Positions 6,081 to 40,434 of a stretch of 64,000 nt of DNA are shown piece after piece. The stretch's first letter is position 1. Each line of letters starts with the position of its first letter. The DNA is taken from the NCBI GenBank assembly GCA_903845055.1, contig CAIMWF010000154.1:9596-73595 (forward strand). The letters are read 5' to 3'. The notes under the pieces are model-generated. The model was given only the letters and a program-made list of their open reading frames with translations, was not told the DNA's origin and did not search any database. This stretch comes from an uncultured Bacteroidales bacterium. Its GTDB lineage: Bacteria > Bacteroidota > Bacteroidia > Bacteroidales > FEN-979. The position numbers and the translations under genes are program-made.

Positions 6081-6108
6081 AATTTTTAATCTTTAATTTA
6101 TAATTGAC
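6081..6108. repeat. Heptamer tandem repeat (AATYTTT-like, 4 units)
   Basis: aattttt/aatcttt/aatttat/aattgac in the convergent intergenic gap. Confidence 0.6.
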
Positions 6109-6116
6109 TTTCCCGG

Positions 6117-6728: not shown

Positions 6729-6746
6729 GCCAGGAGATTTTTAAGG

Positions 6747-7577: not shown

Positions 7578-8911
7578 CAGATGGGTTGATTTTGGTCAAA
7601 ATTTTCAAGATAAAGGACGATCCTGCTGAGGAATTGTCCGCCCAGCGCGCCGTCTATCACCCGGTGATCATAGGTTACGGAGATCATCATGACCGGCCTG
7701 ATGGCCATGGTGTCGCCGTCGGGGGTTTCAACCACCACCACGCGTTTTTTGATGGCGCCGACCGCCACGATGGCGGTCTGGGGCTGGTTGATGATCGGGG
7801 TTCCCATCAGGGTTCCGAAAGAACCAAGATTCGTCAGGGAGATGGTGCCACCTGAAATCTCGTCGGGAACCAGTTTGCCGGTCCGGGCACGTTCGGCAAG
7901 ATCGTTCACCGATTTGACGATCCCCAGCAGGCTCTTTTCATGCGCGCTGCGGACCACGGGCACGATGAGGTTGAAACTAGGCAGGGCCACGGCCATCCCG
8001 ATGTTTACATTCTTGTGTATGACGATCTTGGTGCCATCGACGGATACATTGACCATGGGGAAATCGCGGACACTTTTTGCGATCGCATCGATGAAAATGG
8101 GGGTGAAGGTGAGTTTCTCATTTTCACGTTTCAGGAAACCGTCCTTGTTTTTGTCGCGCCATTGCACCACGCGGGTCATATCGACCTCCTGGAAGGAGGT
8201 GACATGCGCTGAAGTCTGCACCGACCTGACCATGTGATTGGATATCAGCTGGCGTATCCTGTCCATCTCCACAATGCGGTCTTCGCCCGGGATCACCTGC
8301 GCAATGGCATGGGGTGCGACAACCGGGGCTGCTGCGGCAACCTCCTTCGACGGAAGGATGACCTCCTTGATGCCAGCCTTCCTGTCCTTCAGGTAATTGA
8401 ACAGATCCTGCTTGGTGAGCCTGTCGTCCTTGCCGGTCCCGGAAATGGTGTCGAGTTCGGTAAAGGAGATGTTCTCCTGCAATGCGATGCTCCTTACAAG
8501 CGGTGAGTAAAAACGGGTTCCGGAGGCGGCTGCCGTTTCATGCGGGTCGGGGCTTTCAGGTCCGATGACATACGATTCCGGAGGGCTTCCGGCCGGTGCA
8601 GTAGCGGGTATGGCTGAGGCGGCCGGCATCGCTTCGGCAACAGCAACGGGTGCCTTCGCTTTTTCACCACCTTCAAGTTCTACAAGTGCGAATATAGCGC
8701 CTACCGGGACAAGGCTGCCCTCGGCGAATAATTTTTTTACAAGTTTCCCTGAAACAGGAGAGGCGATTTCAGAATCAACTTTGTCCGTGGCGATTTCAAC
8801 AATGGCTTCATCTTCCTGTATCATTTCGCCTTCGTTCTTTAACCACCGGGTGATGGTCGCTTCAATGACACTTTCGCCAAGTTTTGGTATAACTACCTCA
8901 TAATTCGACAT
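7577..8911 (-). CDS. 2-oxoacid dehydrogenase E2 (dihydrolipoamide acyltransferase)
   Basis: Lipoyl domain EIATDKVDSEI, an E3-binding segment, and catalytic DHRVIDGA. I trimmed the start to the ATG at 8911 because the ORF's TTG at 8938 lies inside the promoter box. Confidence 0.9.
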   Translation of the reverse strand: MSNYEVVIPKLGESVIEATITRWLKNEGEMIQEDEAIVEIATDKVDSEIASPVSGKLVKKLFAEGSLVPVGAIFALVELEGGEKAKAPVAVAEAMPAASAIPATAPAGSPPESYVIGPESPDPHETAAASGTRFYSPLVRSIALQENISFTELDTISGTGKDDRLTKQDLFNYLKDRKAGIKEVILPSKEVAAAAPVVAPHAIAQVIPGEDRIVEMDRIRQLISNHMVRSVQTSAHVTSFQEVDMTRVVQWRDKNKDGFLKRENEKLTFTPIFIDAIAKSVRDFPMVNVSVDGTKIVIHKNVNIGMAVALPSFNLIVPVVRSAHEKSLLGIVKSVNDLAERARTGKLVPDEISGGTISLTNLGSFGTLMGTPIINQPQTAIVAVGAIKKRVVVVETPDGDTMAIRPVMMISVTYDHRVIDGALGGQFLSRIVLYLENFDQNQPI

Positions 8912-8935
8912 ATGCAATGGCTTAATAGATTTATG

Positions 8936-8943
8936 CAAAGGTA
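8936..8943 (-). promoter_or_regulatory. -7 box TACCTTTG upstream of the E2 gene
   Basis: The minus-strand sequence tacctttg lies 25 nt upstream of the ATG at 8911. Confidence 0.5.
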
Positions 8944-8987
8944 ATGCTTTTTCTTATTTTGAACCATTCAAAATAAAAATATGTTTT

Positions 8988-10955: not shown

Positions 10956-11007
10956 GCAGTGCCCCGGGATTCGCCTGTAAAGTTAACGCATTCAACGAAA
11001 ATAAAAA

Positions 11008-11592
11008 CTATATTGCTCCTGCTTCGATCATCAGGACGATTTGTTCGATGGCCTGGTCACTGCCCCCGGGATCATAATCGGTTTTCAGGTCATAGCCGAA
11101 GATCCGGGCGAGGGTTTGCCAGATAAAGGCTGAAAAGCCGCCGCGGAGTTCTTTTACGATATCGAAGGTTGAATTTCCTGTTTCCCTGTAAATCAGTTTG
11201 ATCAGTATCTTTCCCTGCGAAAAACTCATATCCTTGATCTGGTCGCCGAACTGGGCCTCCAGATCCTTTTCCGCTTTTTTAAGAAATAGTTTCCTGGACT
11301 TTTCCGACGGCATGGTATCAAGGATGGCCTTGTATTCCCTTAACTTCTTCCCGGCAAGTTTGGCATAGGGATACACTATTTTAATATTGTAGACCAGCCG
11401 GTCGAAGCGGGCTGCTTCGCGTTTTGTCCCGGTTTTTACCGGAGGGAAGATCACCACCGGACGGATGTCGACAAGCGCAATCGTATCCCCGTCAATTATT
11501 TGTGTGGAATTACGCACTCTGGCCGTATCCTGGGCACAGGAAAGATGGCAACCCCATAAGATGCAGATAACGATCAGGATCCCTTTTTTCAT
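11008..11592 (-). CDS. Secreted DUF4294-like protein
   Basis: Has a signal peptide. The family assignment is from memory of the VYPYAKLAG...FSQGKILIKLIYRETG pattern. Confidence 0.5.
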   Translation of the reverse strand: MKKGILIVICILWGCHLSCAQDTARVRNSTQIIDGDTIALVDIRPVVIFPPVKTGTKREAARFDRLVYNIKIVYPYAKLAGKKLREYKAILDTMPSEKSRKLFLKKAEKDLEAQFGDQIKDMSFSQGKILIKLIYRETGNSTFDIVKELRGGFSAFIWQTLARIFGYDLKTDYDPGGSDQAIEQIVLMIEAGAI

Positions 11593-11649
11593 TGACTTCC
11601 CGGTTCATAAAGATCTTCCTTGATAACGAAAACCATGCCGGGTTTGGTA

Positions 11650-12891
11650 TCAGGCGACCCTTAAATGTGCCATACTGGTTTTCCTGAATTTCTCCTCCAC
11701 GAAACCTGCCGTCACATTCAGCGCTTTGACACCGCTTTTCGAGGGGAGTTCAAACATCGCATCGATCATGATTCCCTCAAGGATGGAGCGAAGACCCCTG
11801 GCGCCGAGCTTGAACTCGATCGACTTGTCCACGATGAAATCGAGGGCATCGTCTTCGAAGGTCAGCTTGATGTTGTCAATTTCAAACAGTTTTGTATACT
11901 GCCTGATCAGTGAGTTCTTCGGCTCGGTAAGGATCCGGCGGAGCGTTTTCTTGTCGAGGGTATGCATGAAGGTGACGATCGGCAGCCTGCCAACCAGTTC
12001 CGGGATCAGCCCGAAAGCTTTCAGATCGACGGGTGTGATGTACTGCAGGATGTTGTCCTTGTCGACGGTTTCATGTTTCCTGTCGTTTTTATACCCGATC
12101 TTATTGGTCTGAAGACGGTTGGCAATTTTTTTATCGATCCCGTCGAAGGCGCCGCCCGTGATGAAAAGGATGTTCTGGGTGTTGACCTGGATCATCTTCT
12201 GTTCGGGATGTTTCCGCCCGCCCTGGGGCGGGACGTTGACAATGGAACCCTCCAGCATTTTCAGCAGTGCCTGCTGCACTCCTTCCCCGCTGACATCGCG
12301 GGTGATCGAAGGATTGTCGCCTTTGCGCGCGATCTTGTCGATTTCATCGATAAAGATGATCCCGCGTTCGGCGGCCGCAATGTTGTAGTCGGCCACCTGG
12401 AGCAGGCGCGAAAGAATGCTTTCGACATCTTCGCCAACGTAACCGGCTTCGGTGAGTGCAGTAGCATCGGCAATACAGAAGGGCACATTCAGCATCCGTG
12501 CGATGGTCCGGGCAAGCAAAGTTTTCCCGGTCCCGGTTTCGCCTACCACCACGATGTTCGATTTCTCAATGTCCACGTCGTCGGCGGCGACATCTTTCGC
12601 ATGGTTGATCCGTTTGTAATGGTTGTAAACGGCCACGGCGATGACCCGTTTGGCTTCATCCTGCCCGATCACGAACTGGTCGAGGTGTTTTTTGATCTCC
12701 ACCGGTTTCATGATATTGAAATCGGGGATTTCCTTTTGTTTCTCCGACGACAGTTCTTCCTGCAGGATTGCCTGGGCCTGTTCGATACAGCTTTCGCATA
12801 TGTGGGCATTCAGACCTGCGATCAGGATCTTGGTCTCCCGTTTTTCACGGCCGCAGAATGAACATTTATCAGCAGTTTTTGCCATGGTCAA
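11650..12891 (-). CDS. clpX: ATP-dependent Clp protease ATP-binding subunit ClpX
   Basis: Zn ribbon CSFCG...CESC, Walker [17 protein letters not shown]. Confidence 0.97.
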
Positions 12892-12894
12892 AGG

Positions 12895-13569
12895 TTATAC
12901 ATCCTTTTTGGTGCGGATCAGGATTTCATCGATCATGCCATAAGTACGGGCTTCCTCGCTGGTCATCCAGTAATCGCGGTCGGCATCCTTCAGGATGCGT
13001 TTATAGGGTTGTCCGGAGTGAAGTGATATGATCTCGTACAATTCCTTTTTCAGTTTCTGGATCTCGCGGGCGGTGATATCGATATCCGACGCCTGTCCCT
13101 CTGCGCTGCCCATGGGCTGGTGGATCAGGATGCGCGAATGTTTCAGTGCGGTTCGCTTTCCCTTTTCGCCGGCACACAGCAGGATGGCCCCCATCGAGGC
13201 GGCCATCCCGGTACAGATGGTGGCCACATTGGGGTTGATGTACTGCATGGTGTCGTAAATTCCAAGGCCGGCATAAACCGAGCCACCCGGGGTGTTCAGG
13301 TAGATCTGGATATCCTTTCTTGAATCGACCGATTCGAGGAACAGGAGTTGTGCCTGGATGATGTTGGCTACATAATCGTCGATCGGGACACCAAGGAAGA
13401 TGATCCGGTCCATCATAAGGCGTGAGAACACATCCATGGTGGCGATATTGAGTTGCCGCTCCTCGATGATGGTCGGTGAAATGTAGTTGGATGAAATCGA
13501 TTTATATTTTTCCAGGGTCAGGCTGTTGATGCCTTTGTGACCGATGGCATATTTTGAAAATTCGTCCAT
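12895..13569 (-). CDS. clpP: ATP-dependent Clp protease proteolytic subunit ClpP
   Basis: TICTGMAASMGAILL (active Ser) and ILIHQP (His). Confidence 0.97.
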   Translation of the reverse strand: MDEFSKYAIGHKGINSLTLEKYKSISSNYISPTIIEERQLNIATMDVFSRLMMDRIIFLGVPIDDYVANIIQAQLLFLESVDSRKDIQIYLNTPGGSVYAGLGIYDTMQYINPNVATICTGMAASMGAILLCAGEKGKRTALKHSRILIHQPMGSAEGQASDIDITAREIQKLKKELYEIISLHSGQPYKRILKDADRDYWMTSEEARTYGMIDEILIRTKKDV

Positions 13570-26792: not shown

Positions 26793-28254
26793 AGTTCGGC
26801 AGGTCCCAGTAATCCTCCTGCATGTTACCCCACGATTCGATGACCTGCGTATCCTGCAGATCTTGTGAAGTATAGATGCGGTTGCGCAGGTCTATTTTCC
26901 AGCGCTGGTTGTTGATCTCGCCCGTCGCATCCGAGTGGAGGAGGAAAAAGTCGCTGGTGACCATGTCGGGAGAATAAAATACGAATTTCCTGTTGCGCTG
27001 GTTGTTGTTCAGGGTATAATATTGCCATATCTCATACGGATAATTGCTCGGCTCATTGTATTGCGTGACCCTGGTATTGGGAGGGCCATACTCCAGGTAA
27101 ACACGGCCGCGGTCGGTCTGGTAGCCTTTTTTGACCGGGGTGCCGAAGTTCACCTGAACTTTGTATATCTGGCTCTTGTAAAAATTCCAGGCCTTTTCGG
27201 GGTTGTTCGCATCGCGCTGTGCCCAGAAACTGTAAAAGAACTGCTGCATCATCTTCAGATCGGCTTTTTTCAGTGATTCCCTGATAAATGACTTTTCAAG
27301 TCCGGTTGCCACAGGATAGGTGCTGTTGATGTATTCTTTTAGCGTGTCGCGGTTGGTGATCTTCTCTGAAAAGGTATTTGCAATCTCGGTGGACTGGATA
27401 TCCGAAATGGCCACCACCGCTTTCGGGTTCATGCGCTGGAAAAAAAGTTTTTTCGTGGTCACGATCTCATTTTTCTGGTTCCGGGCCTCAATCACCAGGT
27501 TGTAGTTACCGGAGGCGAGGTTTTCAATGGAAATTTCCGACAACACGACATTGATCCCTTTGGAAACCTCCTTCCTGATCCTGGAGTACTGGTTCTGTTT
27601 CAGGTTGTTTTCAAACGATTCGATATAGTATGAAAGCAGGAACTTGTCGTCACCGGCCTTGTCCATGTTGTACAACTCACAGTAGAAGATCATCTTCGAC
27701 TGTGTTTCGGGGAAGAAAGTGTAGGTGTAGGGTTCAAGGTCGTAGCCGCACTTGGTGAGTTTTGTTGGCGTTGACGATTTTGTAAACGACTTCACCAGCT
27801 CTATCCCCGAAAATACGGGTTTGTCTTTTGGGAAATCAATGGTAATGGACTGGTTGTATGGGACCGCCGCAGTGGTTTTGTTTTTATCGGCCAGCTGGAT
27901 TTCAAAATCGTAGGAGCCGTTCGGGATGGCGATCCGCTGCTGGTCGACAAAGAAAATGTTGTTGTTCACCGTGTCGTCTATTTCCGGGCTGGTCAACTCG
28001 TATTTGTTGAAAGCTTTGATGGCGTTGTCCTGTTTAAAGGTCATCAGGATGTTCACCGTCGCCTGGTATTTGCCATTGTCCTTCCGGGTGTAGATGACGC
28101 TGTTCCCGGCAACGGAAAGGTAGGTCTCGATGTAAGGGCCTTCGGGCGAATTAAAGGTTGACCAGGTAAGGAATGCCCAAAGATTCCTGGCCTGGGTGGT
28201 GGTACCCGACAGGAGGGTGGTGACCAGGAACAATGCGATAACGATTTTTTTCAT
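26791..28254 (-). CDS. GWxTD domain-containing secreted protein
   Basis: Signal peptide. The C-terminal KKGYQTDRGRVYLEYGPPN matches the GWxTD-domain signature. Confidence 0.7.
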   Translation of the reverse strand: MKKIVIALFLVTTLLSGTTTQARNLWAFLTWSTFNSPEGPYIETYLSVAGNSVIYTRKDNGKYQATVNILMTFKQDNAIKAFNKYELTSPEIDDTVNNNIFFVDQQRIAIPNGSYDFEIQLADKNKTTAAVPYNQSITIDFPKDKPVFSGIELVKSFTKSSTPTKLTKCGYDLEPYTYTFFPETQSKMIFYCELYNMDKAGDDKFLLSYYIESFENNLKQNQYSRIRKEVSKGINVVLSEISIENLASGNYNLVIEARNQKNEIVTTKKLFFQRMNPKAVVAISDIQSTEIANTFSEKITNRDTLKEYINSTYPVATGLEKSFIRESLKKADLKMMQQFFYSFWAQRDANNPEKAWNFYKSQIYKVQVNFGTPVKKGYQTDRGRVYLEYGPPNTRVTQYNEPSNYPYEIWQYYTLNNNQRNRKFVFYSPDMVTSDFFLLHSDATGEINNQRWKIDLRNRIYTSQDLQDTQVIESWGNMQEDYWDLPN

Positions 28255-28436
28255 GATGAAAATAATTTAAAGCACCCGGAGAACGGCACTCCGGGAATTA
28301 CCGCCTCCAGTTACAATTTACAAAGATAAGCCCGGCCTGGTGATTATGCAAGCGAAATCGGTATAATTGCAGTTTCTCAGGTTAAGTAGGAACGCGGAAC
28401 AGGCCGGATTGTTTTTGGCGGTTTACGAAATTTGTT

Positions 28437-28444
28437 TAATTTTG
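28437..28444 (+). promoter_or_regulatory. -7 box TAATTTTG upstream of tRNA-Ser(TGA)
   Basis: TAnnTTTG 6 nt before the tRNA 5' end. Confidence 0.5.
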
Positions 28445-28449
28445 CCCAC

Positions 28450-28534
28450 GGAGAGATGGCAGAGCGGTCGATTGCGGCGGTCTTGAAAACCGTTGACCCG
28501 CAAGGGTCCGGGGGTTCGAATCCCTCTCTCTCCG
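28450..28534 (+). tRNA. tRNA-Ser (anticodon TGA)
   Basis: Acceptor GGAGAGA/TCTCTCC, anticodon loop CTTGAAA, long variable arm, T-loop TTCGAAT. Confidence 0.9.
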
Positions 28535-28551
28535 CCTGGTTATTGCATAGT

Positions 28552-28585
28552 AGGCTGTAAACAAAATGTTTGCGGCCTATTTTAT
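28552..28585 (+). terminator. Intrinsic terminator after tRNA-Ser(TGA)
   Basis: aggctgtaaac-aaaat-gtttgcggcct hairpin followed by attttatt. Confidence 0.7.
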
Positions 28586-28740
28586 TGTTGCTGTACCTGG
28601 TTATGAACCGCCTTTTAGGAAGGTCAGTCGACTTGCGTGGAGCCATACCTGACCCATAAACCACCGACCTTGTTTGAGGGAAAGCCCAGTTACCGCTTTT
28701 ACCAGGGATTAAATCCAACCATTTTACCAAAAAGCGGATA

Positions 28741-29931
28741 TTAACCCTGGTCCACAGCCATGTCGCAAGTCAATTCGTCTGCCTTTAATTCAACAGGCAA
28801 CGGAAATGAGACAGTAAACGTGGCGCCTTTCCCCTGTTCACTTTGCAGGTTCAATGAACCATTGAGTTTGTCGACGATCTTTTTTGCGATGTACAAGCCC
28901 AGTCCGGTCGAAGATTCATCGCCCGTAGGACGGGCGCTGAGTCTCTGGAATTTTCCGAAGACCTTTTTCAAATCGGTTTCCGTAAATCCCGGGCCCTGGT
29001 CCTTTACGCTAATGACGCCAAATGACTGGATTACTTGCAGGGACAGCGAAATTTCCTTGTTTTCAGGTGAATATTTAATCGCATTGGAAAGCAAATTTTC
29101 GACAACCTCTTTTATTTTCAGTTTGTCGGAATAAATATTGACAGGATAGTACACTGTTTCAAAAATGATTTTCTGCCCTTTTTTTTCCGCTGCATATTCA
29201 AAACTTTTAATAACCGGGATCATCAGTTCTGAAAGATTGAAGGATGATAATTCGAGATCGAGTTCCATCGAATCATTGATCGTCGATACAAGGAAACTTT
29301 TTACCAGGTCATCCATCTGGAATGCCATTCGGGAAATATGCCGCATGAGTTCTTTTGCCTGGGTTATTTCATCTATCTCCAAAATAAGCTCCGAAAAACC
29401 GAGTATGGCAGAGATGGGATTTCTCAGATCATGGGCTACAATGGCGAGAACCTCTTTTTTGAATTCGTTGGCCTGTTTCAATAACCCGTTCATGATCAGC
29501 TGAATCTTGTTCTGAGCGACAAGCAACTGGTAAAAGTCAAGCAAACGGTATTCATCGGAGACACACCTGACGATAACCGGTTCGAAAATATCGGGTTCCC
29601 TGCGGTTTAATGCTTCGTTAGTAGCATCAATAACCGTTGTAAACGAGTCCAGGATCAGATATGGTTGTGAATTGTCCTCCTCAAAGAAATGAGAAATTTT
29701 CCGTTTCGAATATAAGTCATACATGAACTGGTGGCTCATGATCTCGAAGAACCTGCTCTTTGAAAGCATTCCATAGAACCTGCCATCCTTAAGCAAGATA
29801 AGTCCCGGCGTCGTTTTGTCCTTTTCGAAAAGGCTGTATGCTGTTAAAACGTTATCAGTAAGACATATAGAAGCATTCTTTAACTCCAGATCACCAAGTG
29901 TAGAATTAATATGCAGTTGACTGTTCACCAT
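28741..29931 (-). CDS. Cytoplasmic sensor histidine kinase (unknown N-terminal sensor + HisKA + HATPase_c)
   Basis: H-box [16 protein letters not shown] and G2 box [11 protein letters not shown]. No TM segment. The ATG at 29931 is preferred over the TTG at 29961. Confidence 0.85.
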
Positions 29932-30560
29932 ACCATGCAAAAATACAGGATAATAAGGCAAAATTTCACGAAACAGATTTGTTAATCTAAATTTAACCTA
30001 TGCCGGTCCTTTCCCCTGATCCCTGGGTCAACACCCTGACAATGATCTCATCCCGCAGGCATGTATTTTTGTTTCTTCCATTATAATTAATAGAAATTTA
30101 ATGTATTCGTAACCTCCATGATCCGGCTTAAAACTAATTTTGTTAAAAGTTGCATGTGATTCATTTTCCGGCTGCATCTTTTTCTTTGGTTACCGAGTCC
30201 GTGACTGATATTTGCCTGTTTTGTAATCCGCACAATATTAGGAATTTGGGTATAATCTTTTCAGGAATGGCGTTTTAAGGTCTACCTATTCATTACACCA
30301 GGTTATTGATTTACAATAACATGCTTTATAAATCCAGGGTCCCGGATAAAAGAAATGCATGGGTTTACATCTTCCGGCATTGTTTGGGTTGGTATATGAT
30401 TAACGTTCTTTGTTTCTTTCATCATTGCGCTATCAATGTTAAACTTTTTGCTTCAACAGGATTGCACGGGGATTTGAGCATAAAGGGATTGTTGAATCAA
30501 ACTTGCGGACGTTCAATGTAAAACCGAATGCACCATTCTGTTTCATTAATTACTTGACTT

Positions 30561-32498
30561 ATGCTTCGATATATAGAGGAGATTGAATTAGAAAACAAAG
30601 AAAATTTGTTTCAAAGTGAAGGGTTGTTCAAGACGATCTTCAATGAAGCGCCATTTGGTATTTCGCTGACCGATTCAATGACCGGCGAAATATATGAGGT
30701 AAATCATATGTTTGCCAAAATAGCAGGGAGGACGATTAAGGAGCTGAAGTATTTGAACTGGATGTGTTTAACACATACCGACGATATTCAGAAGGAGATG
30801 GATCAAATGACTTTGCTTAACAGTGGAAAAATCACCGGGTTCCAGCTGGAGAAGCGCTTTGTGCGCCCCAAAGAAGGGGTTGTATGGATAAATATGAAAA
30901 TCGTACCCCTGGGGACAGGAATCAAATCGAACCCATGTCACCTTTGTATGATCGAGGATATTACCGATCGCTACCTGAAAGAGAGTGAACTGAGAAAATT
31001 ATCCAGGGCGGTTCAACAAAGCCCCGTTTCAATCATTATTACCGACCTCGAGGGTAATATTATTTACGGAAATCCAAAAGCAAGTGAAATCACCGGGTAT
31101 AAACCGGAAGAACTGTTAGGCAAAAATGTCAGGATTATGAAATCGGGCGGAACGCCGGGAGAAACTTACATTCATCTCTGGGAGACCATCACTTCCGGAA
31201 ATGAATGGCGGGGTGAAATCCTGAATAAGAAGAAAAACGGTGAACTCTACTGGGAGTCTACTTTTATTTCTCCTGTGATGAAATCAAATGGAATCATTAC
31301 AAATTTTCTTGCCATCAAGGAGGATATTACAGAAAGAAAGAAAGTAATCGAAGAACTGGAATCCGCCAAACATAAGGCTGAGTCGAGCGACCGGTTGAAA
31401 ACGGCTTTTATAAACAATATTTCTCATGAAACGAGAACCCCTTTGAACGGGATACTTGGTTTCAGCAACCTGCTCCTGCAGCCCGACATTCCCCATGAAG
31501 AAAGACTGATGTTTCATTCGATGATCCAGGAAAGCAGCAACAGGTTGCTCTATACAATCAGCAACTACATGGATATTGCCCTGATTGCGTCTGGAAATAT
31601 GGCGGCCAGTTGCAGGACCTTTAATCTGAACCAGGTTCTTCAATCACTTTGGAACCAGTTTAAACCGGCTTGTGATCTGAAGGGGTTGAATCTGATTTTG
31701 AATATTCCTGAACAGAATATGATAACTTCTCTCTGTTCAGATGCTGTGATCATACGTAAAGTATTTTCTCACATGCTTGACAATTCCGTAAAGTTTACAA
31801 AGCAGGGAGAGATAACCTTTGGATATAACGGTAAGCCGGGAGCCATAGAGTTTTTTGTCAAGGATACCGGGATTGGAATCAGCAAAGATTCGCAGCTTTT
31901 GATTTTCGAGAGCTTTATCCAGGAAGAATTTTTAAATACGCGGGGATACGAAGGCAGCGGACTGGGATTGTCCATTTCACAGGGGCTGGTGGCGTTGCTT
32001 GGGGGCTCAATTCATGCGGATTCAGAAAAGGGAATTGGTTCCCGTTTCTCCTTCACCATACCATATAAGGCCGCTGACTCCTGTGAACTTCCGTCTGACA
32101 ACCGTGTTTTAAAAGAACACCTTTTACCAGGGAAACCGGTCATCCTGATTGCCGACGATGACCGGTACAATTTTATTTTGATAGAAACCATCCTGAAAAG
32201 ATCTGATATTACGGTTTATGCTGCCGAAAATGGACAGGAGGCGGTCGATTTTTGTCATGAACATCCCGAAATATCCCTGGTTTTAATGGACATGAAAATG
32301 CCTGTCATGGATGGTCTTGAAGCCACCCGGGAGATAAAAGCATTCAGAAAAGATCTTCCAGTGATCGCAATTACAGCCTTTGCGATGAGCGGAGATGAAG
32401 AGCGGATCCTGGCGTCGGGTTGTGACGATTATGTGCCAAAGCCGGTCAGCAGGGATCAACTGTCCACCAAACTCTCCAAATTTGGGATCATGGTATGA
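30561..32498 (+). CDS. Hybrid sensor histidine kinase/response regulator (PAS-PAS-HisKA-HATPase-REC)
   Basis: Two PAS-like segments, ISHETRTPLNGILGF, GSGLGLSISQGLV, and REC LIADDD...LMDMKMPVMDG...DDYVPKP. Confidence 0.9.
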   Translation: MLRYIEEIELENKENLFQSEGLFKTIFNEAPFGISLTDSMTGEIYEVNHMFAKIAGRTIKELKYLNWMCLTHTDDIQKEMDQMTLLNSGKITGFQLEKRFVRPKEGVVWINMKIVPLGTGIKSNPCHLCMIEDITDRYLKESELRKLSRAVQQSPVSIIITDLEGNIIYGNPKASEITGYKPEELLGKNVRIMKSGGTPGETYIHLWETITSGNEWRGEILNKKKNGELYWESTFISPVMKSNGIITNFLAIKEDITERKKVIEELESAKHKAESSDRLKTAFINNISHETRTPLNGILGFSNLLLQPDIPHEERLMFHSMIQESSNRLLYTISNYMDIALIASGNMAASCRTFNLNQVLQSLWNQFKPACDLKGLNLILNIPEQNMITSLCSDAVIIRKVFSHMLDNSVKFTKQGEITFGYNGKPGAIEFFVKDTGIGISKDSQLLIFESFIQEEFLNTRGYEGSGLGLSISQGLVALLGGSIHADSEKGIGSRFSFTIPYKAADSCELPSDNRVLKEHLLPGKPVILIADDDRYNFILIETILKRSDITVYAAENGQEAVDFCHEHPEISLVLMDMKMPVMDGLEATREIKAFRKDLPVIAITAFAMSGDEERILASGCDDYVPKPVSRDQLSTKLSKFGIMV

Positions 32499-32527
32499 AG
32501 GAACACCGGATTGGGGATGATCAGGAT

Positions 32528-33628
32528 CTATGCCTTTCCAGATAACAACTTTTCTTTCAGTTCCTGTTCGATTTTTGCGAGCTCGGTCTCGGCCAGTTGC
32601 CGCTTGGCCTTCCCGTCGGCCTGGATCTTCAGGGTATCTTCAATCGTGGCAATCAGATCGCTGTTCACTTTTTTCAGAGTTTCGATATCCACAATACCCC
32701 TTTCCGACTCCTTGGCAATCTCGAGGGTGTTATCCTTCAGCATTTCTGAATTTTTCCTGAGGAGTTCATTGGTGGCATCGGTAACCTCCTTCTGGATTTT
32801 CAGGGCCGATTTTTGCCTGAAAAGGGTAATGGCGATCACGATCTGGTTTTTCCAGAGTGGAATCGTATTCAGGATCGAACTCTGGATCTTTTCAACGAGG
32901 GCCTGGTCGCCGTTCTGGATCAACCGGATTTGCGGACCCGCCTGGATCGAGATCATGCGACTCAATTTCAGATCGTAAAGTTTTTTCTCAAAACGGTTGA
33001 GAAACTGCATGAAATCATTGTATTTCTGGGCATCAGCCGGGTCTTTGGTCTCATCGGCCTTCATTTTAAGCTGAGGCGCGACGGTATTCTGCAATTCCTG
33101 CAACTTAAGCTGCCCTGCGGCAATAAAGAGGTCGAGGTTATGCAGGTATTCGAGGTTTTTAGCATACATTGAATCGAGAAGGGTAAGGTCCCTGAGCATC
33201 TGCATGCGCGCTTTATCCAAATCATCAATGATCTTTTCGATCTGAACACTGAGTTTCTCATACCGGATGATGAATTTTTTGAAAGAATTTACAAGGCCGC
33301 CCAGGAAAGGGATTTTCGAGAAGAATCCCTCTTTTGATCCAAGACTGTCTACATCGATATCCCTGACCTTTATGACCAGGTCGGTGAGGATGGTTCCGGC
33401 ATACCCGCTGTCTTTTGTGCGCACCTCCTGCAGGATGTTGTCGGCAAAAGTTGAAATATCCCGTTGCGCACCAACACCGAAGGTAATGATGGCCTGTGAG
33501 TCTTCAACATTGATCTGTTTTTTGATATCATCGACCCGTGCAAGTTGCTCGGGGCTCAGGTTGGCCAGGTTCACCGTGCTGCCCGTACTTAAGCTTACAT
33601 TATCCCTGGTATTCAGTTCATCGCTCAT
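32528..33628 (-). CDS. telA: TelA/KlaA/YaaN-family toxic-anion-resistance-like protein
   Basis: ITFGVGAQRDISTFADNILQEVRTKDSGYAGTILTDLVIKVRDID resembles the TelA N-terminal block. All-helical, 366 aa. I trimmed the start to the ATG at 33628. Confidence 0.8.
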   Translation of the reverse strand: MSDELNTRDNVSLSTGSTVNLANLSPEQLARVDDIKKQINVEDSQAIITFGVGAQRDISTFADNILQEVRTKDSGYAGTILTDLVIKVRDIDVDSLGSKEGFFSKIPFLGGLVNSFKKFIIRYEKLSVQIEKIIDDLDKARMQMLRDLTLLDSMYAKNLEYLHNLDLFIAAGQLKLQELQNTVAPQLKMKADETKDPADAQKYNDFMQFLNRFEKKLYDLKLSRMISIQAGPQIRLIQNGDQALVEKIQSSILNTIPLWKNQIVIAITLFRQKSALKIQKEVTDATNELLRKNSEMLKDNTLEIAKESERGIVDIETLKKVNSDLIATIEDTLKIQADGKAKRQLAETELAKIEQELKEKLLSGKA

Positions 33629-33666
33629 GGGTGTGTTTTTAATGATTGATTTGTATCGGTTTAAAG

Positions 33667-34743
33667 CTATTTGGCATCGGCGAGGGCCTCTATTATATTT
33701 ACCATAACAGATGCACGCGGCATGGGGACGATCTTTGTGACAGAGGCGGGAATTCCATCGACCTGCAGTATTTTCGGATCGTTCTGAACACCCATCAACC
33801 CGGTGCGGAACCCATGCTCCTCCCATGCAATCTTCTGTATCTCCTCATCTTTCAATGCATCTATGAGAAGGGTTGCCTTTTTGTTCAGGATGATCATGGG
33901 ATGTTCACTCCAAACGGTGGGGACCGGGTATAATGTTTTAATCTGGTTTTTTACCTTCGGCCAGAAATCAGGGTGCATTCTTGAAAATTCAATGGACTGG
34001 CTTTCATAACCTCCCATCAACGGGTATTGTCCAACCCCGGTCTTTAAAAACTGTTCAAACAGAACCCCGGAAGTGCTTTGCATGAATCCCTGCCTTGCAA
34101 AAAACTCTTTAACTTCGGGCAGGACCTGCGGGAGATCAGCCTCCACAACCACATCTCCGCCCTTCAGAACAATAGCGACCAGTCCGGCAAACATAATCCC
34201 CGAATTGGATCTGGTAGGATCAGTTGTCGTTACCGTAATTTTACCATACAGTTGCGTCAACCCTATATCGGACCATTTTTTTCCCTCCCTGATCATTTTA
34301 AGCAACCCGGGCATGTCAATGATATAATAGGTCGACATCTCCTTTTTGACAATACCAGTCTTTAAAAGGGCATCCACCACAATATCCCAGCTGTAAATGA
34401 CGATAGGAGAGTTGAAAATGTTTTCTGAGCGTACAATTTTGTCCCCCTGTTTAAGTTTGAAAATCTCGAGCGCAACCTGGCTTGACGGCCAGAGAAAGTC
34501 GGTACCGGTTTTTGCCTCCTCGTTCACCATTTCAATAGATCCTGCACGCACATAGTCAACAACAATCCCGTACTTTTTTTTCAGGATTGTTTTCACCCGG
34601 TCGTTCTCAAGAAATGAACTTTTCTCGCTTCCAATTATGCCCCTGATATGTATCTCCGGTTTTTCATTGCGGTAATACCAGTAACCAAACCCGATGGCAG
34701 CAGCCAGCAAAAGTATGCCTAATCCAATCAGTATCCCTCGCAT
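33667..34743 (-). CDS. Membrane-anchored periplasmic-binding-protein-like protein (paralogue of the N-domain of the PBP-vWA protein)
   Basis: One N-terminal TM helix. It aligns by eye with aa ~60-330 of the 35369-36961 product: WPSSQ/WPASG, SPIVIYS/SPVVFGI, RSNSG/QSNSG, GYESQS/NYESLM, HGFRTG/MGRRTG. Confidence 0.6.
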   Translation of the reverse strand: MRGILIGLGILLLAAAIGFGYWYYRNEKPEIHIRGIIGSEKSSFLENDRVKTILKKKYGIVVDYVRAGSIEMVNEEAKTGTDFLWPSSQVALEIFKLKQGDKIVRSENIFNSPIVIYSWDIVVDALLKTGIVKKEMSTYYIIDMPGLLKMIREGKKWSDIGLTQLYGKITVTTTDPTRSNSGIMFAGLVAIVLKGGDVVVEADLPQVLPEVKEFFARQGFMQSTSGVLFEQFLKTGVGQYPLMGGYESQSIEFSRMHPDFWPKVKNQIKTLYPVPTVWSEHPMIILNKKATLLIDALKDEEIQKIAWEEHGFRTGLMGVQNDPKILQVDGIPASVTKIVPMPRASVMVNIIEALADAK

Positions 34744-34748
34744 AATCC

Positions 34749-35369
34749 TTATTTTAAATCTTCCGCCTTAAATGTTTTCTCCAATGTTTCAATTTCAACG
34801 TCAAGGTCCATGACGTCATTGCTGAGAAGTTTCGCCAGCTGTTTATCAAAAGCTATGTCAATCGAATTGAGCATATCTTCCGCTTTGAGCAGCGCCTTCG
34901 AGATTTCAGGCGAGTGAACATCCTGAAGGGACAGTTGGGAGTACTTATTAACAATGCTGATACTTGTATCAAAATAATAGGATAAAAACTGCCGGGCGAT
35001 TTTCATTTTCTCCGGATCTTTCCTTATATTTTCATATATCTTCTTCACAATGACTATGATATGGAATATTTTTCCACGAATGTTTTCGTTAGGGATCTGT
35101 TTTGCCAGTTTTTCCAGTTCCCTGATTTTCTCTTCACTCTCCCGAAGTGTTGTTTGTACCATCTCAGCAGTAATCCCGCTTCCGGGATTAATGGTAAACT
35201 GTTCCTTAGGGCGAAGGGCAAACAGGATTACATAAATGCCAAAGAATGTAACAATTGAGAGAATCCCGGTGATTAAAAAGCTGAACTGGAACAGGAAAAA
35301 GAGGCCAAGCATAACCAGTCCGGCTGCAATCCCTGAAATGATCCCGGCTCCCGTGGTGAGTTTTTTCAT
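34749..35369 (-). CDS. XpaC-like (5-bromo-4-chloroindolyl phosphate hydrolysis family) two-TM protein
   Basis: 206 aa with two N-terminal TM helices followed by a helical/coiled-coil region. This is the same architecture, size and TelA adjacency as B. subtilis xpaC-yaaN. Confidence 0.6.
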   Translation of the reverse strand: MKKLTTGAGIISGIAAGLVMLGLFFLFQFSFLITGILSIVTFFGIYVILFALRPKEQFTINPGSGITAEMVQTTLRESEEKIRELEKLAKQIPNENIRGKIFHIIVIVKKIYENIRKDPEKMKIARQFLSYYFDTSISIVNKYSQLSLQDVHSPEISKALLKAEDMLNSIDIAFDKQLAKLLSNDVMDLDVEIETLEKTFKAEDLK

Positions 35370-36961
35370 CAGTTATACCCTTTTACCTTCCTGAAAGCGC
35401 CGACCAGGTCTTTCCTGCCGTCAAACACCGCTCCGTTGGTCAGCCTGGCAATCTGGGCCAGCTGGGCGTCGGAAGCATCGCCAAATTTAATTAAAAAAAC
35501 GGGGACATCCCTTCTGTTGTTTTTCCAGGCTGTTTCCAGATCTGCATAATTTTTACCGGTATTTGATTCACCGTCTGTCATGAGTATTATTGCCGGAATA
35601 AATTTTGTTGAATCAACCATTGCACTCTGCTCCAAAGCAAGAATAACGGGCGAATAAATATCAGTGGTTCCGTCGGTCGTTGTTTCCCTGATTTTCTTCA
35701 ATAAATCAACCATCTCGGGTTGTTTGTTTCCTTCAACCTGCCAGGCATCAATGATTGTCCCGGCGAATGGAATTACAAAGGTTATATCAGCAGGTGAACT
35801 TTGGAGAAAGTATTTACCAGCCTTATCCTGGTCTAGGAGTAATTCCATTGCTTTCTTCACAAGGTCGGAGTTCCCCCCGGTCATGCTTCCCGAAAAATCC
35901 AGGCAAAAAAAGGTAAGGGAAGGTTTTCTGAACATGGTTTGATAAAGGTTCAGCGCCTTCAGGACCACCTCTGCCCTGGGAAGCTTGATGGGTGAAAGTA
36001 TCTTCTGAGGGTCTATTCCCCAGTCGGGGTTGAATACTTCAACGGGTGCATTTTTCAGCTCTCCCGCAAAACCGGTCCGCCTTCCCATTTGCATTAGCTG
36101 GTGCTGAATCGGTTCGCTCAGCAGGTAAGCCTGGAGTTCTTTAAAAAAAACCTCTTTTTTGACATCGCCATTATCTATATAACCCAGCTGTGAATCAGCT
36201 ATCACCAGGCCGTCGACGGGATACACAAGATACAGCGGTTCCTTCCCCTGACGGGTCAGTTCCTGGTTAGCCTCAATCATGAGTGATTCATAATTCACCA
36301 TGGCATCATAGCCTCCTTTGAGAAAAAGATCCTTCAGCCAGGCCGAACTTCCAGATGAGCGGTTAATCCCTGCGAGAAGATCGGTGATCCCTTTCTTTAA
36401 TTCCGGCTTTTCGAGATCGGCTTCCGTTATATATTCCGGGTTGCCCAGCAATGCATACAAAAAACCGATGTAGGCACTGGCCCCCGAATTGGATTGTGAA
36501 GCGGAGGTCATGATAAACCTGAGTTTTTTCTCCCGGATAGCCTTCAGGATTTCTCCCACCTTCACATCCTTCCCCGTTAATCCCAACTGCAGGGCAAGGC
36601 TTTTTCTGATCCCAAACACTACTGGTGACGTCATGATGGATTGGGCATACTTAACTTTTCTCTCACGGTCGCCCAGCGTTATCCAAATGCCGCTGGCCGG
36701 CCAGACCGCATCATATTTAGAAGCGTTTTTCTGCAATTCCAGCATGATATCGACCGACCCTTCATATTTGAATTTGACCAGTACATTATTTTTCCTGGCA
36801 AATTCATCTACTATCTTTTCCAACGGTCCGTTTTCTGACCCTGAAAGGATCAGGAATTCCCTGGGATGTTTTTTACAGGAATTCAGTGACAACAATATGA
36901 AAATTGCCGCCAGCAAGCCGGAAACTCTCATTATATGGGAAAGTAAAAGGTTTTTATACAT
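35369..36961 (-). CDS. Lipoprotein with substrate-binding (PBP-like) N-domain and C-terminal von Willebrand factor A domain
   Basis: Lipobox LLSLNSC. Intact vWA MIDAS LDFSGSM...ILMTDGESN. Its stop overlaps the next start by 1 nt (TGATG). Confidence 0.8.
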   Translation of the reverse strand: MYKNLLLSHIMRVSGLLAAIFILLSLNSCKKHPREFLILSGSENGPLEKIVDEFARKNNVLVKFKYEGSVDIMLELQKNASKYDAVWPASGIWITLGDRERKVKYAQSIMTSPVVFGIRKSLALQLGLTGKDVKVGEILKAIREKKLRFIMTSASQSNSGASAYIGFLYALLGNPEYITEADLEKPELKKGITDLLAGINRSSGSSAWLKDLFLKGGYDAMVNYESLMIEANQELTRQGKEPLYLVYPVDGLVIADSQLGYIDNGDVKKEVFFKELQAYLLSEPIQHQLMQMGRRTGFAGELKNAPVEVFNPDWGIDPQKILSPIKLPRAEVVLKALNLYQTMFRKPSLTFFCLDFSGSMTGGNSDLVKKAMELLLDQDKAGKYFLQSSPADITFVIPFAGTIIDAWQVEGNKQPEMVDLLKKIRETTTDGTTDIYSPVILALEQSAMVDSTKFIPAIILMTDGESNTGKNYADLETAWKNNRRDVPVFLIKFGDASDAQLAQIARLTNGAVFDGRKDLVGAFRKVKGYN

Positions 36962-37253
36962 ACGTCGGAAATGTTGAATTCCATAAATATTCGGCCGGAC
37001 CGGGCCTTTACACCTGAAAAACCATAATATTAACAAATTAAAGCTGACGCTGTGTTAATTTAAAGTTAAAAATGAGAAGTTTTTCTGGAAAGTAAGCAAG
37101 ACCAATAAATTTCTCATGACGAAGGAGGTTCATTTCTTAAATCGTCACATAGGAAAGCTACAACCAACTAACTGACCAGGCATATTCCCAAATGCTCACT
37201 CCCGGTAATTCATCCTGACTCCTCCTTTCCAATAATACCCGTATCTTTGAATC

Positions 37254-38105
37254 ATGAATGCCGTACCACTCATCATTGCGGCCGTAGCGATCTTTGCACT
37301 GGCCTATCGTTATTATTTCGGGTTTATCGCCGCCAGGGTGCTTTCATTAGACAATCACCGGGACACCCCGGCCGGTCGTTTGTACGACGGGCAGAACTAT
37401 TACCCGATGAGCAAATGGGTGCTGTTCGGGCATCACTTTGTCGCGATCGCCGGGGCCGGGCCGCTGGTGGGACCGGTGCTCGCCTGCCAGTTCGGCTATT
37501 TCCCGGGATTTGTCTGGATGGTGGTGGTGGCGGTCATGGCAGGATCGGTGCACGACATGGTGATCCTTACCGCATCTGTGCGGCATGACGGAAAATCGCT
37601 GGCTGAGATCGCCAGCTATGAGATCGGCAAACGTTCCAGCGGGATCACGGCCTCGGTCGCCACGTTCCTGATCATCATCATCGCCATCGCCGGGCTGGGC
37701 CTGGTGGTGGTGAATGCCCTGAGCGAATCATCCTGGGGGCTTTTCACCATCGCGTCAACCATCCCGATCGCCATTTTCATGGGCATATGGATGTTCCGGT
37801 TCCGCAAGGGAAACGTGGTCGAGGCGACCATCATGGGGGTTCTCCTGTTGTCATCCGCCGTTATTTTCGGAAAATACATCCCCCAGTCGCAGTTTGCTTC
37901 GTGGTTTGTCTGGGACCACAAAACACTGGCCCTGATGCTGGCCGGATACGGGTTATTTGCCTCCGTGCTCCCCGTCTGGCTGCTTTTGTCGCCCAGGGAT
38001 TACCTGAGAGTCTTTCACATTTCGCATATCGAAGTTTGTGAGGGTGGATGGAGGCCTGCGGGTTCATCGGCCAGGATGGGTATTGTGTTGGTATTGCCTA
38101 CATGA
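37254..38105 (+). pseudogene. cstA: Carbon starvation protein CstA, 3'-truncated
   Basis: The first ~260 aa are canonical CstA (YYPMSKWVLFGHHFVAIAGAGPLVGPVLA...LLLSPRDYL). The reading frame then decays and stops. The C-terminal half of CstA is absent from the window. Confidence 0.7.
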
Positions 38106-40434
38106 CAACTGCCTCCTTCACGGACGTCACCTCTTTGCCTGAAAATTTAAGATAATAAACGCCTTTGCCGGAAAGTGTGAGATTGACCCATGTTTTTCCG
38201 GGTGTCACAGGTTGTTCCAGGATGATTTTTCCGAGGGCGTTGTACACCGTTAAATGATCAAACCTGCTGCCTGGTTCGATACAAAAGATTCCCGTGGAAG
38301 GATTCGGATATATGCTGATCTCCCTGCTGCCGGGTACTGCAATGGATGTAACCCTTCCGTTCTGGATGACGACCAGGTGGCGTGAAAACCCGGATGAAAC
38401 AAAGTCAAGCGAACAATCGCGCGGGGGATCCCAGGGATTGGCCTGCGTTGCGGTAAACAGTACATTCCCCGATGCCGTCCCGCCGGATTTATCGCTCTTA
38501 AGCCAGCCCGGAAGCAGGCCATTCAGGGTCCACGGGGTGGAGGAGGAGAGGGCCAGCGACCCGGTACTCCCGGCCGGCCGGCCCAGGAAAAGGGTGTCGG
38601 GATGGATACTGAAGGCGATCATCTCGGAGAGGGGTCGTGTCCAAATTCCCAATCCAGTGAGATAAAAGCTTGGATTTCCAGACTCTACGGCAGCATAAGC
38701 AATGGAATCAACAACCGAAAGTGATTGAATGCTTGATTCAACGGGCAGTCCCGTATGTTCTGCCGACCAGGTTTGGCCATTGTCATCCGTCATGACGGCC
38801 GGGACCAGCCCCTGCAGAACGCCTGCGAACATCTTGTTCCCCGAGGAGACAAAGGAGCTGCAAAGGGAGCCGTCAGGAAACTCCACGCCGGAGTTGACCC
38901 ATTCCGCACCCTTGTTGCCGGAGCGGAAAATGGCGGATTGATAATCCTGCCACAGATCATGATAAAAAGTCGAGGCATAAACCTGGCCTGGATTCGCCCC
39001 GATGGCCCGCACATGGATGTATGAAAGCCCGTTGTTCTCCTGGCTCCAGGAGGAGCCGTAATCGGAAGAGATGAAAACCCCTTCATCGGTGCCGGCAAGA
39101 AGGTCGGTGCCCGTTGCCGCCAGGGCATAGACGGTGGTATTGGTCAGCCCGTTGTTGGCCGCATGCCAGGTGAGCCCCAGGTCGTCTGATGCGAATATTC
39201 CTCCTCCCGGGGTTGTGGAGTTATTGAAAGTCGTACCTGCGAAAAGGCGGGAACCCAGGGTTGCAAGACATGTCACATTGAAGCCGGGCATGAATGCGGG
39301 GCTCCAGGAAACGCCGTTATCGGTGGACCTGTATATTCCGGAGCCTGCGGCAAACAGCACCGGTGAGATATAAGCAACGGCATTCAGGCTCCACGTGGGC
39401 AGCCCGTTGTTGATATGCATCCAGGTTTTGCCTCTGTCCGCTGATCTCATCATCCCTTCACCCGGCGTGGCGGCGAAAATGTTCCACCCGTTCATCGTAA
39501 AGGCCTGCACCGTTTGCCTCACCAGCCCGTTGGACGATTCCTGCCACGAAACCCCGGCATTGTCGGAAATGAAAATTCCCCCCGGCGAGGTGCCCGAAAT
39601 CAGCCTGTTTCCATCGAATTCCAAGGTTTTCAACGAATAATCCATCATCCCGCAATAGGTCCAGTTGGCCCCGGTATTGTCGGAATAGTATAACCCGCCA
39701 GGCCAGCCGGGCGATGGGTCAACGGTAAGCCCGGCATAGATCCGGGTTCCGTTCGTGAAAAGTTTTTGAACACCACCTGGGGTTATCCCGGTGGATGAAG
39801 AACTCCAGGTGGATCCGCCGTCGGAGGAGGCATAAACCTGCCCGCCCGCGGCAGCAAGCACTTTCGTCCCAGTGATCAGGAAGGAATTGAAACCGCCTAT
39901 TGAAACAGGATACCATCCGAAGGACTGTCCGTAATCGACCGATTTGTAAAAGCCCCAGTCATTCACGCCCACGTACATCAGGGGACCATTAACCGCCATG
40001 CAGATCGCCGTCTCCCCGTTGGTTGATGGTAAAACGTTCTGCCAGGTGGCACCGTAGTCGGTCGACCGCAGGAGGCTGTCGGAAGTGGCGATGATCATGG
40101 CCTGGCTGTTTACAATGGCCGAATAGAGCGGGATCCCGCCGTACCCGCCGATGATCACGGTGTTCCATACAAGCCCGTCGTTGTCCGAAACGAACAGCCC
40201 GCCATACGTTGCGGCGAACAATTTTGAGCCCTGCGAAACCAGGGCTGAAATGTTTTTGTTGACCAGTCCGTTATTCCTGGCATTCCAGGTGGCCCCGTTA
40301 TCGGTGGAGGCATAAATGCCGTTTTCGACTGTGCCCACCATCAAAACCTGGTCCTTCGTGATGGAACAGTTGATTTTTCCGCCGCACGGGCCGTTGGAAG
40401 GTTTCCACTGGGCGAAAGAAAACGATGCAATCAA
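38098..40434 (-). CDS. BNR/Asp-box repeat (sortilin/Ycf48-like) protein with T9SS C-terminal sorting domain; signal peptide interrupted by TAA
   Basis: About 13 SxDxGxTW-type motifs. The C-terminus IYPNPSTGIF...GVYYLKF is a T9SS CTD. The upstream in-frame sequence ATG AAA CGT TTG TTA ATT TAA precedes the ORF. Confidence 0.75.
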   Translation of the reverse strand: MIASFSFAQWKPSNGPCGGKINCSITKDQVLMVGTVENGIYASTDNGATWNARNNGLVNKNISALVSQGSKLFAATYGGLFVSDNDGLVWNTVIIGGYGGIPLYSAIVNSQAMIIATSDSLLRSTDYGATWQNVLPSTNGETAICMAVNGPLMYVGVNDWGFYKSVDYGQSFGWYPVSIGGFNSFLITGTKVLAAAGGQVYASSDGGSTWSSSSTGITPGGVQKLFTNGTRIYAGLTVDPSPGWPGGLYYSDNTGANWTYCGMMDYSLKTLEFDGNRLISGTSPGGIFISDNAGVSWQESSNGLVRQTVQAFTMNGWNIFAATPGEGMMRSADRGKTWMHINNGLPTWSLNAVAYISPVLFAAGSGIYRSTDNGVSWSPAFMPGFNVTCLATLGSRLFAGTTFNNSTTPGGGIFASDDLGLTWHAANNGLTNTTVYALAATGTDLLAGTDEGVFISSDYGSSWSQENNGLSYIHVRAIGANPGQVYASTFYHDLWQDYQSAIFRSGNKGAEWVNSGVEFPDGSLCSSFVSSGNKMFAGVLQGLVPAVMTDDNGQTWSAEHTGLPVESSIQSLSVVDSIAYAAVESGNPSFYLTGLGIWTRPLSEMIAFSIHPDTLFLGRPAGSTGSLALSSSTPWTLNGLLPGWLKSDKSGGTASGNVLFTATQANPWDPPRDCSLDFVSSGFSRHLVVIQNGRVTSIAVPGSREISIYPNPSTGIFCIEPGSRFDHLTVYNALGKIILEQPVTPGKTWVNLTLSGKGVYYLKFSGKEVTSVKEAVVM

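Follow-up and report, generated by a model that had tools for sequence, protein, structure and literature searches.

What a telA-xpaC gene pair does when it is combined with genes for ligand-binding proteins is the question raised by one locus of an uncultured Bacteroidales bacterium, since TelA and XpaC recur in studies of tellurite, nisin, daptomycin and bacteriocin resistance without a known biochemical activity or trigger. The locus lies at positions 32528-36961 of the 64,000-nt stretch of contig CAIMWF010000154.1 that was analyzed as a whole (hereafter the window). It consists of four genes, A to D, which encode a lipoprotein with a periplasmic-binding-protein (PBP) domain and a vWA domain, an XpaC-like membrane protein, a membrane-anchored PBP and TelA. 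We put the probability at roughly 0.6 that the four gene products make up a self-contained sensing complex across the membrane, in which A and C would form the extracytoplasmic receptor, XpaC the transducer and TelA the cytoplasmic partner. The original prediction, made from the letters of this stretch, had likewise proposed a ligand-sensing membrane complex, and its proposal is supported by 80 loci without a transporter, by fusions of the C-type PBP to SARP or cyclase domains and by SARP-XpaC fusions inside the cassette.

35369-36961, minus strand: gene A, PBP and vWA lipoprotein, 530 aa (520 aa with the start at 36931)
34749-35369, minus strand: gene B, XpaC-like membrane protein, 206 aa
33667-34743, minus strand: gene C, PBP with a single-pass anchor, 358 aa
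32528-33628, minus strand: gene D, TelA, predicted soluble helical protein, 366 aa
36962-37253, minus strand: upstream intergenic region, the expected site of a putative promoter; all other gaps in the block measure 38 nt or less

The stop codon of A and the start codon of B share 1 nt (TGATG), and the gaps between B and C and between C and D are 5 nt and 38 nt, respectively. Independent calls on two public contigs with an identical A protein gave the same four genes (520, 206, 358 and 366 aa), so that the reading of the open reading frames (ORFs), which had already described this packing on the minus strand, and the public annotation agree. The public calls place the start of A at the second Met (36931). 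The nearest relatives of A are 530 aa long and one of them has Glu at the position of the second Met in the window; 36961 is therefore the likelier start.

Domain architecture of the four proteins

The segments on which the following description relies are listed here.

36875-36877, minus strand: lipobox Cys codon of A (Cys29 of the 530-aa form, LLSLNSC), from an alignment of 50 homologues
36083-36838, minus strand: PBP domain of A (SBP_bac_11), Pfam aa 42-293
35435-35908, minus strand: vWA domain of A, Pfam aa 352-509
35885-35899, minus strand: first motif (D-F-S-G-S) of the metal ion-dependent adhesion site (MIDAS) of A, from the sequence; the remaining Thr is in GTTDIY and the remaining Asp in LMTDGESN
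about 35214-35348, minus strand: two-helix membrane hairpin of B, hydrophobic helices within aa 8-52, with a helical cytoplasmic domain after it
about 34672-34737, minus strand: transmembrane (TM) helix of C, AlphaFold2 helix aa 2-25

Protein A matched the Pfam families SBP_bac_11 (4.4e-16, 59.8 bits, cutoff 25) and VWA (2e-9, 38.4 bits, cutoff 23.8). All 50 aligned homologues, from many phyla, have the lipobox Cys, and a lipobox is retained in distant versions from Sphaerotilus (LLGGC), Deinococcus (LLLGC) and Variovorax (TLAAC). Thus, A is a predicted lipoprotein and would be located outside the cytoplasmic membrane. The MIDAS (D-x-S-x-S ... T ... D) is complete; D345, S347, T423 and D453 (numbering of the 520-aa form) are invariant in the 50 homologues and S349 is nearly so. 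These data bear out what had been read by eye, namely a lipobox LLSLNSC, a PBP-like N-terminal domain and a vWA domain with an intact MIDAS. In the AlphaFold2 model of A (pLDDT 91, pTM 0.87), Foldseek related the PBP part to the cluster-D binding proteins FbpA, AfuA, PotF and TbpA and the vWA part to ITIH1. No PDB chain spanning both domains was found by Foldseek, and sequence and profile searches for solved structures returned nothing usable for A. The JGI label "Ca-activated chloride channel homolog" for A was rejected, since it stems from the vWA domain that CLCA proteins have and is not in itself evidence of a channel.

Protein C matched no Pfam family, and sub-threshold matches to SBP_bac_11 appeared in only 5 of 55 relatives. 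Its AlphaFold2 model (pLDDT 91) has an N-terminal helix (aa 2-25) ahead of a type II PBP fold, for which Foldseek returned PhnS-like, sulfate-binding (Sbp), iron-binding (FbpA) and ModA proteins (probability 1.00, E 4.7e-12 to 1e-9, TM-score 0.55-0.70, 10-15% identity); profile searches for solved structures returned nothing usable. C and the PBP domain of A were aligned by BLASTP (24% identity, E 1e-9) and by hhalign (probability 97.9%, E 5e-13, 279 columns). Judged from these alignments, C and the PBP domain of A are paralogous, as had been suggested for a TM-anchored protein, and the blocks then matched by eye (WPSSQ/WPASG, SNSG, GFRTG/GRRTG) occupy columns that are both aligned and invariant.

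The PBP domain of A contains the motifs SGSEN, GSVDIM, WPA, TSPVVFG, MTSA[ST]QSNSG, NRSSGSS, VNYE, YPxDG and GRRTG, all invariant in the 50 homologues, and the A and C families have the blocks GS[VI][DE][IM]M, WP[AS], SP[VI]V, SNSG, SSG, YE, YP and G[RF]RTG in common. By their position in the fold, the common blocks correspond to the cleft-lining loops and helix N-termini of cluster-D proteins. In the sulfate-binding protein and in FbpA, an oxyanion sits at the corresponding Ser-Gly start of a helix.

Protein B matched PF10112 (Halogen_Hydrol/XpaC) at 1.3e-38 and 133.3 bits (cutoff 29.8) over model positions 4-190 of 191. The loop of its hairpin is very short, leaving almost nothing outside, and both flanks carry positive charge; both ends of the hairpin are predicted to be cytoplasmic. 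Searches of the XpaC profile against solved structures returned only designed helical proteins. Protein D matched TelA (PF05816) at 5.4e-119 and 397.6 bits (cutoff 30) over model positions 1-331 of 332. We found neither a signal peptide nor a TM segment in D, whose highest 19-residue hydrophobicity window (1.28) is below the TM range, and D is predicted to be a soluble cytoplasmic helical protein. Sequence and profile searches gave no PDB relative of TelA. The assignments of B by size and architecture (two TM helices, then a helical region) and of D as TelA-like are therefore upheld by strong hidden Markov model matches. The TelA sequences of the cassette all matched PF05816 (28/28) and none matched PspA_IM30 at E up to 1. 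NCBIfam contained no meaningful family for any of the proteins A to D.

The best-conserved TelA stretch across phyla (aa 249-270; window 32819-32884; SSILNTIPLWKNQIVIAI...) is a mildly hydrophobic helix, too weak for a TM segment. This helix may contact the membrane or XpaC.

Conservation of the cassette across phyla

A scan of one genome per species with C yielded 80 loci in at least 10 phyla, and linkage was counted only where the contig leaves room. The C family is 50-60% identical between phyla and comprises 372 clusters (50% identity, E <=1e-30) among 1.84 billion representative proteins. The loci belong to Bacteroidota (including the cultured Puia dinghuensis), Acidobacteriota, Spirochaetota (Leptospiraceae and Treponema among them), Desulfobacterota, Verrucomicrobiota, Myxococcota, Thermotogota, Fibrobacterota, Planctomycetota and many Clostridia. 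Cultured strains with the cassette are P. dinghuensis CGMCC 1.15448 (L009) and Lachnoclostridium sp. An131 and An138 (L062, L073). A precedes C on the same strand in every one of the 71 loci counted. Tblastn placed B between A and C in 67 of 75 loci and phmmer added five, two loci having no room for it, and TelA was encoded 3′ of C in 52 of 70. The median gaps are approximately 4, 7 and 34 nt.

These counts define A and C as the invariant core, to which B is almost always added, with TelA as a frequent fourth member. The arrangement is far beyond chance, because it has been kept across phyla. Co-conservation of the four genes held in related and very distant genomes, TelA being frequent and not obligatory, and the copy in the window is a typical member of the cassette rather than one unique to its source genome. 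ORF clustering of the 80 loci revealed no further gene family in more than 7 of them and no recurring permease, ATPase, kinase or Ter genes; the permease and ATPase that accompany the binding protein in an ABC transporter were not found at these loci.

Two placements in the sample stand out. The cassette of a binned Syntrophorhabdaceae genome (L001) is 87-93% identical to that of the window, and a locus binned as Gastranaerophilales (L039) has identity values equal to those of chicken-gut Clostridia (L033-L036, L040-L042). Both probably reflect binning errors rather than recent transfer.

Fusions to signaling domains and permuted gene orders

The C-type PBP and XpaC are each fused to signaling domains in some bacteria. 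One protein (P0384) contains an adenylate/guanylate cyclase domain, one TM helix and a C-type PBP. Another (P0306) contains a SARP-type winged helix and BTAD, one TM helix and a C-type PBP; this architecture also occurs in two full-length clusters with 60-63% identity, which indicates that the SARP-PBP fusion is real. At one locus encoding it (L087), two A-type genes, one of them 48% identical to A of the window, are directly upstream of the fusion gene, and neither XpaC nor TelA is encoded on the contig. SARP and BTAD are also fused to the N-terminus of XpaC in five protein clusters (including P0413, P0417 and P0422). In L088 and L090 the fused gene occupies the position of B (L088:7001-8566 and L090:7001-8446), giving the order A - SARP::XpaC - C - TelA; the C protein of the SARP::XpaC cassette is 33% identical to that of the window.

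A SARP or cyclase domain is necessarily cytoplasmic, and these fusions therefore place the C-type PBP outside and the N-terminus of XpaC inside; for B itself, a cytoplasmic N-terminus follows from the SARP fused there in another lineage. The positive-inside bias of C is nearly neutral in close homologues. Distant C homologues have clearly positive N-termini (MRRRW.., MKRT.., MNKQIR..) followed by one helix. Since SARP or cyclase precedes the TM helix in the fusions and the distant N-termini are positive, C is predicted to have one N-terminal helix, with its N-terminus inside and the PBP outside. As far as the domain composition tells, the fusion architectures are those of sensors, not of transporters or structural proteins. 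Together with the invariant core of A and C, the SARP::XpaC, SARP::PBP and cyclase::PBP architectures are, as far as could be checked, new supporting evidence.

Giant A-type paralogues are found at two of these loci, L087:1880-5986 (1368 aa) and L088:3713-6880 (1055 aa). They have an N-terminal extension of 540-870 aa before the SBP and vWA domains, which lacks a Pfam match.

In a plasmid collection, C homologues of Betaproteobacteria and Deinococcus with 25-31% identity were located in the same gene set arranged in another order.

Sphaerotilus sulfidivorans: C - TelA - A - two-TM protein
Variovorax: C - TelA - A - two-TM protein
Deinococcus taeanensis: C - A - two-TM protein, without TelA

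In size and in having the hairpin, the fourth protein of these three versions resembles XpaC. The gene set outlasts both divergence and reordering, so the products likely work together, and we consider this good evidence of joint function.

The Sphaerotilus sulfidivorans cassette (L083; plasmid pSna507_unt10, region 3927-12954) is located between genes for a PhoX-family phosphatase and an ExeM/NucH extracellular nuclease. PhoX-type phosphatase and ExeM/NucH-type nuclease genes are typically induced by phosphate starvation. This neighborhood, a single case, hints that the ligand could be phosphate-related. About 2 kb upstream of the Variovorax cassette (L085; Variovorax sp. SRS16 plasmid 2), on the opposite strand, a flotillin-domain protein and an OB-fold membrane protein are encoded (1512-3907). 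This NfeD-like pair is another membrane-organization module near a permuted cassette.

A putative sensing complex and its alternatives

We propose the following mechanism for the putative sensing complex. A and C would act as a receptor at the outside of the cytoplasmic membrane, where a small ligand, probably anionic, would bind in the clefts with the common signature and close one or both PBPs. The MIDAS of A would probably clamp an acidic group, which may belong to a partner or to the ligand. The XpaC hairpin would receive the signal of PBP closure by way of the one membrane helix of C, and the cytoplasmic domain of XpaC would in turn change its hold on TelA or its release. TelA at the inner face of the membrane could be a protective effector, a feedback regulator or both. 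The overall logic would resemble that of PspB/C-PspA with a receptor added outside, and in some lineages the same input may be wired to transcription via SARP on XpaC or on the C-type PBP.

Genetic data from Enterococcus faecium bear on the inner half of this scheme. Deletion of xpaC lowered the daptomycin minimum inhibitory concentration 8-fold and redistributed the membrane phospholipid domains only when telA was intact, and deletion of telA alone or of both genes had no effect (PMC6811118). That the effect of the xpaC deletion needs telA points to control of TelA by XpaC, and the pattern gives a hint that XpaC restrains or directs TelA. As a more specific and tentative proposal, which we regard as possible rather than probable, A and C may be the missing input receptor of the XpaC-TelA stress module, equipped with a MIDAS latch, recognizing one defined anionic ligand and signaling through the XpaC hairpin to TelA. 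Candidate ligands would be phosphate or pyrophosphate compounds that derive from the envelope, or else toxic oxyanions, for example tellurite or selenite. If this were true, the cassette would represent a new four-component transmembrane pathway without a kinase or cyclase in more than ten phyla, rewired through SARP in some lineages.

Several observations weigh against a dedicated four-part sensor. TelA is absent within 7 kb in 18 of 70 loci and is therefore not essential to the A-B-C core; the downstream genes of nine inspected TelA-less loci are mutually unrelated, and both loci lacking B also lack TelA. The two-TM protein of the proteobacterial and deinococcal versions was not accepted as XpaC, showing no detectable similarity to it (hhalign probability 10.7%). 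The cyclase-PBP fusion was seen in just one protein, encoded on a 2.7-kb contig. As to co-transcription, sigma-70-type and terminator-like matches at the cassette were at background level only, and the region upstream of A lacks an exact match to the Bacteroidota motif TAnnTTTG, the only approximation being TAATTTG at 37040. The probably anionic nature of the ligand of A and C is deduced from the position of the motifs and from fold neighbors at 10-15% identity, and the flow of information from outside to inside is an assumption of the scheme.

The same parts could be assembled into a different device. TelA together with the vWA protein TerF has been described by the Aravind laboratory as forming sub-membrane structures that bar phages and xenobiotics (PMC7824862), and the cassette might analogously be an exclusion device of the Ter/TelA type, in which TelA and the vWA protein form a barrier to phage DNA, colicins and toxic compounds and the PBPs serve as decoys or triggers. 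The varied genomic contexts and patchy phylum distribution, as in accessory modules, and the GC content of the cassette (0.455 against a window mean of 0.498) would fit such a role. We consider it improbable, however: the vWA domain is carried by a lipoprotein outside the membrane and would therefore form no joint sub-membrane structure with cytoplasmic TelA; TerB, TerC and TerD are absent among A to D by Pfam and do not recur near the cassette in the 80 loci; A to D matched no PADLOC model at E up to 0.1; no phage record contained a C homologue; and the transcription-factor fusions favor signaling. These fusions speak equally against a structural tether, in which A and C would hold on to part of the cell wall or outer membrane and connect it mechanically with XpaC and TelA, serving the integrity of the envelope instead of the sensing of a diffusible ligand. 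The typical targets of vWA MIDAS domains are acidic groups on macromolecular partners, and a pair anchored by a lipid (A) and a helix (C) could bridge two layers. A tether would also accord with the effect of XpaC on the organization of membrane phospholipid domains in E. faecium (PMC6811118). Nevertheless, the cassette is unchanged between monoderm Clostridia and the diderm Bacteroidota, Spirochaetota and Thermotogota despite their very different envelopes, and the motifs of its PBP clefts do not vary, which would be expected if they served one small defined ligand; a tether is thus rather unlikely.

Least probable, in our judgment, is an unconventional uptake or sequestration system, in which the PBPs would capture a solute such as an oxyanion and pass it to a pore of XpaC oligomers or hold it in the periplasm. 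The PBP folds are nearest to binding proteins for sulfate, molybdate, iron and phosphonate transport, and TelA has historically been tied to toxic-anion resistance, as in its Pfam name. Yet the 80 loci have no recurring permease or ATPase family, the membrane part of XpaC is just two helices joined by a loop that barely reaches outside, and the fusions of C-type PBPs with a transcription factor or a cyclase have the build of sensors, not of transporters.

Relation to known systems

The xpaC-telA (yaaN) pair of Bacillota, represented by B. subtilis xpaC-yaaN, Listeria lmo1966-lmo1967 and the E. faecium genes, resembles the locus in the window in that a PF10112 two-TM protein and a PF05816 protein are encoded in one operon. 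In the window, xpaC and telA are likewise on the same strand in a tight block, but A is added upstream and C is inserted between the two; the core consists of A and C, not of xpaC and telA, and the host belongs to the diderm Bacteroidota. The Bacillota pair is a member of Lia/CesSR-type envelope-stress regulons (PMC10269926, PMC12791056, PMC7864038) and affects susceptibility to nisin, daptomycin and tellurite (PMC12791056, PMC10269926, PMC6811118). Known phenotypes of TelA are confined to Listeria, Enterococcus and the plasmid RK2 homologues (PMC12791056, PMC6811118).

Our literature searches found no experimental work on a PBP-vWA version of the TelA/XpaC cassette, and to this extent the original prediction, which knew of none, stands. 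Its implication that nothing was known has to be softened: Anantharaman, Iyer and Aravind, in a comparative-genomics study in Mol Biosyst in 2012, reportedly predicted that TelA belongs to sensory complexes at the membrane, of which periplasmic-binding-protein-II domains may be a part, and are said to have treated vWA proteins as Ter/TelA partners. The cassette, which is widespread, has probably been noticed in silico. It differs from the predicted TelA/TerB sensory complexes in lacking TerB, TerC and TerD, and its vWA domain is extracytoplasmic, unlike those of TerY and TerF.

The Psp and Lia systems (PspB/C-PspA-PspF; LiaF/LiaX) are comparable to the cassette in that small membrane proteins control a soluble helical protein at the inner face, coupled to a transcription activator, a coupling paralleled by SARP::XpaC of L088 and L090. 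The likeness is a functional analogy without a sequence relationship, and Psp has no extracytoplasmic ligand-binding receptor. A periplasmic binding fold used as a signaling input, as proposed here, is found in LuxP-LuxQ, in TorT-TorS and in the PBP or Venus flytrap domains of BvgS, and the SARP::TM::PBP fusions are ToxR-like in layout, as in tethered regulators of the ToxR/CadC type. In contrast to PBP-dependent sensors, the cassette in the window has no kinase, cyclase or DNA-binding domain, its cytoplasmic parts being only the helical domain of XpaC and TelA. In the calcium-channel alpha2-delta subunit, which is extracellular and anchored by a lipid, a domain that binds small molecules is joined to a vWA domain, and the MIDAS of the latter touches a membrane partner. 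This eukaryotic protein is unrelated in sequence and has Cache instead of PBP domains, and the analogy applies to the MIDAS latch only.

In the cassette, TelA and XpaC come with two ligand-binding domains of an ordinary, purifiable kind, with a metal-dependent adhesion domain and, in some bacteria, with a DNA-binding output; the cassette thus offers a direct experimental route into TelA/XpaC function. It is present in gut Clostridia (Lachnospiraceae) and in Treponema, where any role in tolerance of envelope antibiotics would have practical interest.

Genomic surroundings in the window

A hybrid histidine kinase gene (30561-32498) is convergent toward the 3′ end of the cassette, and a gene for a 283-aa CstA fragment is divergent from its 5′ end. 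The kinase was rejected as a partner of the cassette: among the sampled loci it adjoins only on the contigs with identical A (L081, L082), and ORF clustering detected no recurring kinase family near the cassette across the 80 genome loci. The closest relatives agree with the assignment of the source to Bacteroidota.

The GC content is 0.442 in the stretch 28000-37000, which also takes in both histidine-kinase genes, compared with 0.455 in the cassette and 0.498 in the whole window. The low value of this stretch may mark horizontally acquired DNA.

The carbon-starvation (CstA) ORF (37254-38105, plus strand) is only 283 aa long, and the same short gene was called on a public contig. Full-length CstA is considerably longer; this ORF is probably what is left of a truncated gene. 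At its end it shares 8 nt with the 3′ end of a convergent gene for a 778-aa BNR/sortilin-like protein with a Por secretion tail (38098-40434, minus strand).

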